From positions 33,815 to 97,814 of the IMG/VR virus record IMGVR_UViG_3300011701_000001: a stretch of 64,000 bases of DNA; one strand, written 5' to 3'. Below are positions 20,796 to 33,909 of the stretch, piece after piece (within the stretch, counting starts at the first letter, position 1; every line of letters starts with the position of its first letter). Made by a program: the position numbers and the translations under genes. Below the pieces are notes generated by a model. That model worked only from the letters and a program-made list of their open reading frames with translations, ran no database searches and was not told the DNA's origin. The DNA comes from a virus. Taxonomy: Duplodnaviria > Caudoviricetes.

Positions 20796-20879
20796 GGTGT
20801 ATCTAACAGTACGGTGATAAATAAAATGTACACTTATAAATGATAGTTTTAGTAAAATATTTTACCTTAAGGAGACATA

Positions 20880-21554
20880 ATGAGTTATCACAAAATAAAG
20901 ATATGTAAACACGATGTAAAAAGCCCTTTTAAACTGCAAGAAGAGTTTTTTGAATATTTGGATGCTGTAGCTAATAAAAACCCCATTATGGCTGTTCAGG
21001 AGCTTTCTGACTTGTATGGCTGTTTGGAGAATGAAATATCCAAATATGGTATGTCTGTTGAAGACTTGAAAAAGATGTCTGAATTAACGAAAAGTGTTTT
21101 TAAATCTGGCTTGCGTAAAAGCACACCATTCATCGAATATTTGAAAGATAACAGTGATAGTATTAAGTGTTTTGGACTTGGTTTTGTTCAGGTTAAATGT
21201 GGTGAGTTTAATTATAACTTTTACTCTGATAAAATTGAAAAGTTTTTAAACCATAAAGCACCTCATAATCACCAGCAAGATTTTGTTGGCGAAATCCTAA
21301 AAGGTGAGTTGAAAGAGACTCTTTATAATTTTGAAGAAGGTGTTTCAATAAAACACACAAAAGGTGAGTTGTATTTAAGGTTGAAAGATGAGTATCATTC
21401 TGTGTTAGGTGCTCACGGAACGGTGACTAAAGTGTACAGGATGGGTTCAAAATCTGACGCTTATGATTTATCGGAAAATACCTTGCACAATAATACAATT
21501 GACTATAGTGTAGATCAGCTTTGGAGTATTGTAGAGGATGTTTGGAATGTATGA
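20880..21554 (+). CDS. MazG-like NTP pyrophosphatase domain fused to cupin domain
   Basis: KLQEEFFEYLDA...QELSD (EExxE..ExxD); cupin PHNH...ILKG and GELY......YHSV. Confidence 0.7.
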   Translation: MSYHKIKICKHDVKSPFKLQEEFFEYLDAVANKNPIMAVQELSDLYGCLENEISKYGMSVEDLKKMSELTKSVFKSGLRKSTPFIEYLKDNSDSIKCFGLGFVQVKCGEFNYNFYSDKIEKFLNHKAPHNHQQDFVGEILKGELKETLYNFEEGVSIKHTKGELYLRLKDEYHSVLGAHGTVTKVYRMGSKSDAYDLSENTLHNNTIDYSVDQLWSIVEDVWNV

Positions 21555-22077
21555 AATAGATTTAAAAGTTTTGTATGAAGCTTTAAACCACTATAAAGAA
21601 CTTGGTTATAAGATGATACCAGCACCTTTATTGGTTGATGAAGATATTGTTTCTTTAACACTACCTGAAGGACGTAAAGCAAAAGAACATATAAATGGTT
21701 TGTTTTATGTTGGTAGTGCTGAACAATCAGCATATCAATTATACAAAGACGGAGTTCTTAGTTCAGGTAAATACATGCTATTAACACCGTGCCAAAGGGA
21801 TGAAGATATTTTAGATGAAACTCACCTAGAAATATTTTTAAAACTGGAGTTAATATCTTTAGGTGGTGAGTATTCCTCGATATTGAATGATGTTTTATCT
21901 TTCTATAATAATGACAAATGTGTTGTTATTAATACCTCACAAGGAGAAGATATAAATATTAATGATATAGAGGTTGGTAGTTTCGGAAGCAGAATTTTTA
22001 TGGGGACAAATTTCTGTTTTGGTACAGGAATAGCTCTACCAAGATATACACAAGCAATTAATAGGAGTGCAGCATAA
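21547..22077 (+). CDS. stand-alone class II aaRS-like (SerRS-type) catalytic domain
   Basis: Motif 1 GYKMIPAP, GSAEQ, motif 2 TPCQRDE..H..F.K.E, EVGS, motif 3 GTGIALPR; no tRNA-binding arm. Confidence 0.75.
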   Translation: MYEIDLKVLYEALNHYKELGYKMIPAPLLVDEDIVSLTLPEGRKAKEHINGLFYVGSAEQSAYQLYKDGVLSSGKYMLLTPCQRDEDILDETHLEIFLKLELISLGGEYSSILNDVLSFYNNDKCVVINTSQGEDININDIEVGSFGSRIFMGTNFCFGTGIALPRYTQAINRSAA

Positions 22078-22593
22078 ATGCGTATTCAGAAAGGAAAGGT
22101 TAGATTTAATAAGCGAGAGCTTTGGAACTTAGATAAACACCTCTCTAGAGTTATTGTTCAGGGGTTGGAACAGTTTAAGGGTATTCGCAAGAATACAATC
22201 CCACCTAACTTAGTTACTGAGGATGTTGATCCTGAAACGGGTAAAGAGGTTTATTGGGATTATTCTAGTGAATATTGTGAGGAACAATGGCAAGAGTTGT
22301 TAGATAAGATGATCTTTGCTTTCACAGAACATCCAACATATTTTAATATTGAACCTTATGATTTTCATTACGATGACTTATCACACCCTGAGAAGTTTCC
22401 TCCTGTTGTTTGGGAAGATCACCCTGTTTATGGTAAAGTTACTGAGTGGAGACAAATTCTAAAAGAAGGTGTCACACAAGAGGAAGTTGATGCTTGGTGG
22501 GAACGTAGTCGAGCATACGATGCTAAGATTAAGCGTAAGGTAAATGAAGGGCGAGAGTTGTTCATCAAATATTTTGATGACTTGTGGGATTGA
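22078..22593 (+). CDS. conserved phage hypothetical protein
   Basis: WNLD..L, W..LLDKMI.AF, G..LF.KYF..LWD pattern. Confidence 0.65.
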   Translation: MRIQKGKVRFNKRELWNLDKHLSRVIVQGLEQFKGIRKNTIPPNLVTEDVDPETGKEVYWDYSSEYCEEQWQELLDKMIFAFTEHPTYFNIEPYDFHYDDLSHPEKFPPVVWEDHPVYGKVTEWRQILKEGVTQEEVDAWWERSRAYDAKIKRKVNEGRELFIKYFDDLWD

Positions 22594-33730: not shown

Positions 33731-33909
33731 CTCTTAAACTCCCAAGGTTTTACAATTCTTGCCACTTCTACCAATGAACCAAAATCATCTACTATATGAT
33801 AAATAAATTCAATTGTTTGATTCTCATTATTTCCAGTATAAGAGTAATAAAAACCATGCCCGTATAATCTAAACATTCTTATTCTCCTTTTCATTGTTAT
33901 GACATTCAA
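33727..33909 (-). CDS. hypothetical early protein
   Basis: DDFG.LV motif; coupled. Confidence 0.5.
   Translation of the reverse strand: MNVITMKRRIRMFRLYGHGFYYSYTGNNENQTIEFIYHIVDDFGSLVEVARIVKPWEFKR

Follow-up and report, generated by a model that had tools for sequence, protein, structure and literature searches.

An accessory phage cassette pairs a putative MazG/HisE-like domain with a predicted minimal class II aminoacyl-tRNA synthetase core

We analysed a stretch of 64,000 nucleotides (positions 33,815 to 97,814 of the IMG/VR virus record IMGVR_UViG_3300011701_000001), hereafter the window, which is a portion of a complete Acinetobacter phage genome of 97,814 bp with direct terminal repeats. 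The window carries a two-gene cassette on the + strand. Gene 1 (20880..21554) encodes a 224-residue fusion of a putative MazG/HisE-like domain and a cupin, as judged from the open reading frame (ORF), PHROG matches and an AlphaFold2 (AF2) model. Gene 2 (21547..22077) encodes a 176-residue protein that, according to its ORF, its match to PHROG 4806 and fold comparisons, is predicted to be a complete yet minimal catalytic core of a class II aminoacyl-tRNA synthetase (aaRS), with an intact adenylate site of the seryl-tRNA synthetase (SerRS) type. The MazG-like domain and the core constitute one unit. In our preferred reading, to which we assign a probability of roughly 45%, the cassette is an accessory two-gene functional unit, mobile among large virulent phages, in which the core would activate an amino acid and pass the aminoacyl group to a nucleotide-type acceptor, rather than perform standard tRNA-Ser charging. 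An earlier sequence-only reading of the window had described both ORFs, and we recovered both, together with every motif it quoted, at the positions it gave.

The catalytic core encoded by gene 2

Gene 2 matched PHROG 4806 ("histidyl tRNA synthetase") at E 1.6e-45, and its AF2 model, built with 65 relatives, had a pLDDT (predicted local distance difference test) score of 95.8. In the VIA structure search, 176 of the 176 residues aligned to human mitochondrial SerRS (mt-SerRS, PDB 7u2a; Z 18.3, root-mean-square deviation 2.5), and about 50 further class II enzymes, including HisZ, Bll0957, GenX and AsnA, aligned with Z scores from 18.3 down to 12.6. The best Foldseek matches were the catalytic domains of PylRS and SerRS (E ~4e-9). 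The family profile, compared with the PDB, matched PylRS (5.8e-6), SerRS (8e-5) and PheRS (2e-3), and hhalign aligned the family to E. coli SerRS at E 1.8e-6. A single-sequence PDB search returned only chance SH3 matches for gene 2 and none for gene 1. The model pLDDT, the mt-SerRS alignment and the Foldseek matches bear out the arm-less class II core of SerRS type that the sequence-only reading had proposed.

Each family-invariant residue of gene 2 pairs with an element of the SerRS active site in the hhalign alignment. Motif 1 reads GYKMIPAP and contains P27. Motif 2, TPCQRDE...H93..F97.K99.E101, places TPC-x-R84-x-E opposite the TPCFRSE of SerRS and F97-x-K99-x-E101 opposite QFDKVE, with H93 opposite the second motif-2 Arg of E. 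coli SerRS. In motif 3 (GTGIALPR), G159-T160-G-x-A-x-x-R166 lies opposite GSGLAVGR. The SAE loop (S57-A-E59) corresponds to the TAE loop of SerRS, and EVGS (E142-x-x-S145) to EISS. The motif and SAE residues were invariant or nearly so in 66 relatives; P27, R84, E86, H93, F97, G159, G161 and R166 were invariant or at least 90% conserved, and the residues predicted to bind the alpha-amino acid (S57, E59, E101 and T160) were invariant. The roles of these residues in ATP and amino-acid binding are presumably those of their counterparts in SerRS structures, and we take the TAE-type loop S57-A-E59 to be the holder of the alpha-amino group.

The aligned elements (class II core, TAE-type loop, TPCxRxE, E..S and G(S/T)GxAxxR) are common to gene 2 and to both E. 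coli SerS and mt-SerRS. Nevertheless, gene 2 is ~60% smaller than SerRS, carries His in place of the second motif-2 Arg, and belongs to a family that is nearly always paired with a MazG-like protein. The N-terminal coiled-coil tRNA arm is absent: the model begins opposite residue 235 of mt-SerRS and roughly opposite residue 165 of T. thermophilus SerRS, and the upstream gene 1 consists of a four-helix domain and a cupin, with no long hairpin. No anticodon or variable-arm reader was found in the model. The NCBIfam search, which includes a SerRS model, returned no family for gene 2 at E ≤ 0.1. The Pfam model PF00152 scored gene 2 at 15.4 bits against a cut-off of 25; two relatives did exceed Pfam cut-offs, P0295 on PF01409 (29.4 vs 19.8) and P0294 on PF00152 (27.4 vs 25).

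These features bear on an alternative in which gene 2 is a true minimal aaRS or a tRNA 3′-end maintenance enzyme that aminoacylates host tRNA-Ser, or tRNA ends generally. Such an enzyme could boost translation, or it could shield or restore 3′ ends hit by defence toxins, and the MazG-like partner could then act on a blocked or triphosphate end or on the nucleotide substrate of the toxin; we regard the proposal, with both of these roles, as possible but on the unlikely side. The intact SerRS-type active site and the rank of SerRS as the best fold match speak for it. However, gene 2 lacks the coiled-coil arm and any anticodon or variable-arm reader, and its motif-2 loop is ~8 residues shorter than that of E. 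coli SerRS. Arm-less E. coli SerRS still forms the adenylate but loses tRNA charging, which also counts against this alternative. Moreover, the alternative offers no clear reason for a near-constant, sometimes fused partner of MazG type.

PylRS, the top PDB profile and Foldseek match, resembles gene 2 in its catalytic domain (PylSc/PylRS-C, class IIc), with which gene 2 shares a short motif-2 loop with THLE(E/I)F and a D(I/V)ExNGxEV(G/A)S strand. In contrast to gene 2, PylRS has no SAE/TAE alpha-amino loop, has a large hydrophobic pocket within ~270 residues, and serves tRNA-Pyl with a separate N-domain. Because the short motif-2 loop resembles those of PylRS and PheRS, we interpret the gene 2 family less as a recent fragment of SerRS than as a minimal class II lineage of deep origin whose amino-acid site is SerRS-like. 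Net charge and the isoelectric point (pI), taken as a proxy for nucleic-acid binding, do not discriminate here, because E. coli SerRS is acidic too (pI 5.3, vs a median of 4.9 for the gene 2 family). With 176 residues, the core is near the smallest natural and evidently selected class II synthetase, and it speaks to the "urzyme" question of the minimum protein size that suffices to activate an amino acid.

The N-terminal domain of gene 1

Residues 1-90 of gene 1 (20880..21149, + strand) form a predicted all-alpha domain, delimited by conservation, four predicted helices and sub-threshold Pfam matches. PHROG 6408 matched residues 2-80 at E 2.7e-17, and the AF2 model of the whole protein (pLDDT 92.1) has four helices in residues 1-90. 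The domain contains KLQEEFFEYLDA at residues 18-29 and QELSD at residues 40-44, and the acidic motif is carried by two helices of the model, 17-31 and 35-54. Among 79 such N-terminal domains, Y3, H4, K18, E21, E22, E25, D28, E41, D44, G47, T70, F74 and R79 were nearly invariant; E21, E22, E25, E41 and D44 were at least 96% conserved, with a spacing of 15 residues. The pattern E22-x-x-E25, 15 residues, E41-x-x-D44 is the metal motif of the all-alpha NTP pyrophosphohydrolases of the MazG/HisE type. Sub-threshold Pfam matches pointed the same way, to PF01503 (PRA-PH/HisE) in 35 of 42 members and to PF03819 (MazG) in 5 of 42. HisE (1yvw and 2a7w) and a MazG-like protein (1vmg) were among the 19 best matches of the domain profile in the PDB (E 0.5-1), and the neighbours of the domain in the protein atlas bear PRA-PH/MazG. 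Fold searches with the whole gene 1 model had their top rows filled by the cupin. The assignment to MazG/HisE, which the sequence-only reading had also made, is thus suggested by the motif, the four predicted helices and the weak but consistent recurrence of PRA-PH/MazG matches.

We also considered whether the small helical domain could be an acyl carrier protein-like partner, and rejected this candidate: the only possible phosphopantetheine serine, S43 in ELSD, is replaced by Ala in 19 and by Cys in 2 of the 79 domains, and is thus not conserved. The carrier-protein reading of the partner fails for this reason. The question belongs to a wider alternative, in which gene 2 acts like EpmA, AsnA or the amino acid:carrier-protein ligases, its acceptor being a carrier thiol, the side chain of a protein or a small molecule other than a nucleotide, and in which the MazG-like protein would either serve as an adaptor or travel along as an unrelated house-cleaning enzyme. 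To our knowledge, all characterised arm-less class II paralogues act in this manner. In the VIA search, gene 2 aligned to Bll0957 (3mey) with Z 15.5, to GenX (3a5y) with 13.6 and to AsnA with 12.6-14.3, and its partner domain of ~80 residues is helical, like a carrier protein. Bll0957 and its relatives are likewise arm-less, SerRS-related adenylating enzymes found beside a small helical partner. However, the partner described here has no conserved phosphopantetheine serine and carries the acidic motif of MazG type instead, in which E41 and D44, the residues flanking S43, are invariant, as fits a MazG metal motif; the family is also phage-borne. The known amino acid:carrier-protein ligases derive from the zinc-dependent SerRS of methanogen type. 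The fold and sequence of gene 2 are nearer to SerRS and PylRS than to EpmA and AsnA, and the two fusion orders and 95% adjacency described below speak against mere co-travel. Taken together, we consider this alternative rather unlikely.

The resemblance to HisE raises a further alternative, that gene 2 is a non-catalytic regulatory or decoy protein like HisZ, whose sole activity would be to bind a host factor or a ligand. HisZ (3od1, Z 16.7) is among the best fold matches of gene 2, PHROG 4806 is labelled "histidyl tRNA synthetase", and HisZ and HisE do combine an aaRS-like core and a pyrophosphohydrolase of the HisE/MazG type in one pathway. HisZ, however, is not catalytic and depends on HisG, and the pair described here has no HisG-like gene linked to it. 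Across the 66 relatives of gene 2, the catalytic arginines of motifs 2 and 3 are invariant, as are the residues for Mg/ATP and for the amino acid. The non-catalytic reading fails because of this invariance, and we hold it to be extremely unlikely.

Linkage of the two components and range of the family

The linkage was assessed in 82 loci, comprising 80 IMG/VR loci found with the core, Acinetobacter phage Phab24 and the window, by running a hidden Markov model (HMM) of the N-terminal domain against the same-strand ORFs. A MazG-like partner was present on the strand of the core in 78 of the 82 loci. It lay directly upstream of the core in 49 loci, upstream within 542 nt in 22 and directly downstream in 7, and was fused to the core in one. 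One of the four partnerless loci ends at a contig edge; the other three (L006, L008 and L013) are the few cases that break the pairing, and they may reveal whether the core is able to work alone. Among the representatives at 50% identity, fusions occurred in both orders, MazG-core in P0229 and core-MazG in P0268, P0219, P0270 and P0087. The ORFs between partner and core encode unrelated small proteins, except for a stand-alone cupin in L081. When a third conserved neighbour was sought, no other gene family was common to more than 7 of the 82 loci.

The cupin itself was found in 7 of the 82 loci and in three arrangements: in the order MazG-cupin (the window and Phab24), in the order cupin-MazG (L037, L045, L050, L065 and L086), and as a separate gene between partner and core (L081). 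Of the MazG, cupin and aaRS-like linkage for which the sequence-only reading had suggested a survey, that of the MazG-like domain and the core holds and that of the cupin does not. Since so few loci have the cupin, the pathway of NTP hydrolysis, oxidation or isomerisation, and ligation put forward in that reading is not a general one. The products it suggested, namely a modified base, an altered immune signal or a modified protein or tRNA, would be candidate alternatives. The conserved unit is the MazG-like domain with the aaRS-like core, and the metal cupin is an optional addition, because it occurs in so few loci and its His ligands are lost in the shorter forms of ~205 residues described below. 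The pairing of the core with a putative nucleotide pyrophosphatase points to an unstudied reaction that joins amino acids and nucleotides or RNA ends.

The core family comprised 1,653 clusters at 50% identity (E ≤ 1e-3), of which 1,172 remained at E ≤ 1e-30, and its members are usually 165-210 residues long. It was borne by 275 deposited phage records, from large virulent phages of Escherichia, Acinetobacter, Caulobacter, Pectobacterium, Cronobacter, Microcystis, Vibrio and other hosts. The family is almost restricted to phages. When one genome for each prokaryote species was scanned with two patterns of the close subfamily, two core loci came to light, one of them on a 167-kb contig of phage-like size; this count understates distant cellular relatives, because the patterns cover the close subfamily only. 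One metagenomic locus (L086:3100-4906) encodes a cupin-MazG protein of 276 residues followed by a core with a C-terminal extension of 125 residues that belongs to no known family. Its contig, a JGI metagenome contig of 1.6 Mb, is too long for a known phage and has a GAF-EAL gene near the pair, which may be a cellular or prophage copy.

As the sequence-only reading had expected of automated pipelines, the core is annotated as "putative Seryl-tRNA synthetase" in Phab24 and as "histidyl tRNA synthetase" in PHROG 4806. The paper on Citromicrobium phage RXM labels g121 "SerRS", with the MazG genes g118 and g119 beside it (PMC8953757), and a survey of jumbo phages does not discuss the pair (PMC7824862). 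The pair is thus already catalogued (PHROG 4806/6408) but mislabelled, and the seryl- and histidyl-tRNA synthetase labels of the core family are probably wrong. In agreement with the sequence-only reading, no characterised function for the combination was found in the full-text literature. Three findings are new here: the cupin recurs as an optional third component and is fused in either order, the cupin of the window copy has lost a loop by deletion, and the cassette is dispensable in its lineage.

Accessory status and selection

Within its phage lineage, the cassette is an accessory and dispensable element. Its right border is formed by gene 3 (22078..22593, + strand; 171 residues, PHROG 11543, function unassigned), which is not a member of the module and begins at the base that follows the stop codon of gene 2. 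Homologues of gene 3 with 80-85% identity were present in 18 Acinetobacter phages of the AM24/TaPaz-like kind that lack the cassette, among them AM24, TaPaz, BS46, B9 and Herod, and remote ones (26-30% identity) in Aeromonas and Klebsiella phages. Outside the window, the core was found at high identity only in Phab24, the closest deposited relative at the cassette locus, and only Phab24 had the cupin. Searches of the whole genomes of AM24 and TaPaz found no core, and in both phages other small genes adjoin gene 3 in place of the cassette. By blastn, DNA similarity to AM24 and TaPaz starts at 22062 and 22077, and similarity to Phab24 spans only 20871-22593. Given these break-points and the cassette-free sisters, genes 1 and 2 with their ribosome-binding site act as an exchangeable module in a mosaic region. 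That sister phages lack the cassette speaks against a function essential to the lineage, e.g. modification of DNA throughout the genome. The sister phages with the cassette (Phab24 and the window phage) and without it (AM24 and TaPaz) offer a natural genetic test of its role, e.g. in counter-defence.

Both genes are under purifying selection. Compared with Phab24, the ratio of nonsynonymous to synonymous substitution rates (dN/dS) was 0.087 for gene 1 and 0.132 for gene 2, and both domains of gene 1 were under purifying selection. The synonymous rate (dS) was 0.26 for gene 2, vs 0.98 for gene 1 and 0.78 for gene 3; the low value for gene 2 suggests either a recent exchange of gene 2 alone or a strong synonymous constraint.

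Proposed function

We propose that the core would convert a small polar alpha-amino acid, with serine as the first guess, into its aminoacyl-adenylate, and that the aminoacyl group would pass to an acceptor not chosen by classical tRNA-binding domains. This acceptor would be nucleotide-like, namely the ribose or base of a nucleotide made or trimmed by the MazG-like domain, or the terminal nucleotide of an RNA. We favour a nucleotide-type acceptor because the near-constant and sometimes fused partner is a putative nucleotide pyrophosphohydrolase. The two proteins of the cassette probably act as a complex. Their likely role would be counter-defence or the manipulation of nucleotide or translation stress, and not core replication or translation. 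By a rough division, an RNA or tRNA 3′ end would receive somewhat more than a quarter of our expectation for the acceptor, a free nucleotide a little less than a fifth, and other acceptors about half.

An analogy to this type of chemistry is offered by the MazZ-PurZ pair of Z-genome phages, in which a MazG-type enzyme yields a nucleoside monophosphate and an ATP-dependent ligase joins an amino acid to it. PurZ differs from gene 2 in being a PurA homologue and not aaRS-like; neither a DatZ-like gene nor other genes of that pathway are linked to the pair here, and the cassette is dispensable in its lineage. The most specific form of our proposal would be that the smallest natural class II aaRS-type ligase, complexed with a pyrophosphatase of MazG/HisE type, aminoacylates a nucleotide, either a free one or one that serves as an immune signal, in place of tRNA, a protein or a carrier. 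We judge this form to be quite improbable. If true, it would mean that phages own an undescribed amino-acid–nucleotide conjugation chemistry, which the cupin of the window phage would extend with a metal-dependent step.

Several observations weigh against a nucleotide-type acceptor, or against parts of the argument for it. The known acceptors of aaRS paralogues are tRNA, a carrier-protein thiol, the lysine of EF-P and ammonia, and we know of no characterised truncated aaRS paralogue that aminoacylates a free nucleotide. The full-text literature yielded homology-based labels only and no experiment on any family member. For the N-terminal domain, the best Pfam E values (1.3e-3 and 0.015) are under the cut-off, and the hhalign comparisons with E. 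coli MazG (E 0.16) and HisIE (E 0.8) are non-significant, with the motifs aligned. The three exceptions to the pairing, L006 (Acinetobacter phage Acj61), L008 and L013, have full flanks and no MazG-like gene within 6 kb of the core.

The neighbourhoods of the pair in other phages are split between nucleotide metabolism and tRNA-related contexts. On the former side, ribonucleotide reductase genes adjoin the pair in the phages ESCO13 and muut, NUDIX/NADAR genes lie near it in L088, and ThyX/dUTPase genes in L090. The latter contexts also count against our proposal and lend support to the alternative of a minimal aaRS or 3′-end maintenance enzyme. In Escherichia phage muut, a 144-residue YqeY-like protein (L092:7586-8017; PF09424, E 4.3e-8), annotated as "tRNA amidotransferase" and comprising a tRNA-binding module of the GatB-tail type, lies directly downstream of the core. 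A CCA-adding enzyme was encoded 3-6 kb upstream of the pair in 6 of 80 loci, and one is near the pair in L089 as well. In one core relative, P0274 (L085:377-1195), which has a MazG-like gene just upstream, the core is fused to an 86-residue N-terminal helix-hairpin-helix of the RNA polymerase alpha C-terminal domain type (PF03118, E 1.6e-5, over the cut-off). These tRNA-related neighbours are easier to reconcile with an RNA end as acceptor than with a free nucleotide.

Against the same alternative stands the lineage-specific nature of these neighbours, as the YqeY-like one was confined to 1 of 80 loci. The window phage itself encodes a single tRNA in its 97.8-kb genome, tRNA-Arg(TCT) (C1:2606-2682, minus strand, outside the window); no tRNA-Ser was found in the whole genome, and an Rfam search of the window gave zero matches. 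The single tRNA-Arg, the lack of tRNA-Ser and the empty Rfam result weigh against a dedicated tRNA system.

An alarmone module would also make use of an intact adenylate site and a partner of NTP-pyrophosphohydrolase type, since several class II aaRS make Ap4A-type compounds via the adenylate. According to this alternative, the core makes such dinucleoside polyphosphates, and the MazG-like domain cleaves them or (p)ppGpp-type nucleotides, which would reset the stress signalling of the host. The accessory, early-region-like character of the cassette is consistent with such a role. However, a fused unit that both made and cleaved the same compound would run a futile cycle, and the invariance of S57, E59, E101 and T160 is stricter than Ap4A synthesis alone needs. 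We find this alternative very unlikely.

The cupin domain and its loop deletion

The C-terminal cupin of gene 1 comprises residues 93-224 (21156..21554, + strand), as assigned by Foldseek, VIA and conservation. PHROG 4784 matched residues 92-166 at E 4.1e-5. The VIA matches covered residues ~80-205, with all of the top 50 rows being cupins (Z 10.3-8.3), and Foldseek agreed, with matches to HppE, MncA, KdgF and oxalate decarboxylase at E 1e-5 to 1e-4; the cupin had been recognised in the sequence-only reading. The cupin motifs are PHNH (128-131), ILKG (139-142), GELY (162-165) and YHSV (172-175). The putative metal ligands are H129, H131 and H173, perhaps together with D134 or E138. H129, H131, D134 and H173 were at least 90% conserved in the family of 246-residue proteins and were kept in the cupin-MazG forms. 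In the forms of ~205 residues, among them those of Acinetobacter T4-like phages, the C-terminal domain persists but the His ligands are gone. The cupin of the window phage would contribute a metal-dependent step or ligand binding to the reaction of the conserved pair.

The cupin of the window is shorter by 22 residues than most of its homologues (246 residues), and the missing loop bears a conserved CxCGD. Protein and DNA alignments with Phab24 traced the loss to a stretch of 66 nt deleted cleanly and in frame, with the junction at 21333..21334 on the + strand, between short AAGA(G/A)G repeats. The AF2 model is confident across the junction. One further homologue, P0164, also lacks the CxCGD loop. 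The cupin domain nevertheless has a pN/pS of 0.17 vs Phab24, indicating purifying selection.

Organisation of the locus and minor observations

Genes 1 and 2 lie on the + strand amid a series of small genes that are mostly without family. By reading of the sequence, gene 1 is preceded by the Shine-Dalgarno site AAGGAGA (20869..20875, + strand), and that of gene 2, GAGGA (21534..21538, + strand), lies within the end of gene 1, 8 nt 5′ of the gene 2 ATG at 21547. The stop codon of gene 1 occupies 21552-21554, and the genes overlap by 8 nt within ATGTATGA. Homologues of gene 2 begin at the same Met as the ATG at 21547; a second open ATG lies further upstream, at 21538. PADLOC and NCBIfam gave zero matches for genes 1-3, and in the scan for promoters and terminators the real sequence scored no better than its shuffles. 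A look-up of sequencing runs listed no RNA runs and small metagenome shares only, and is uninformative on expression.

In two of the phages with the pair, a UvrD-type helicase is encoded upstream of it, with 530 residues in ESCO13 (L091:5148-6737) and 924 residues in muut (L092:3968-6739). The muut helicase has Hint/intein-splicing matches at residues 254-600, and it likely contains an intein insertion. Downstream of the cassette in the window, an 89-residue ORF at 23714-23983 matches a phage GroES-like co-chaperonin (PHROG 3188, E 1.7e-11).

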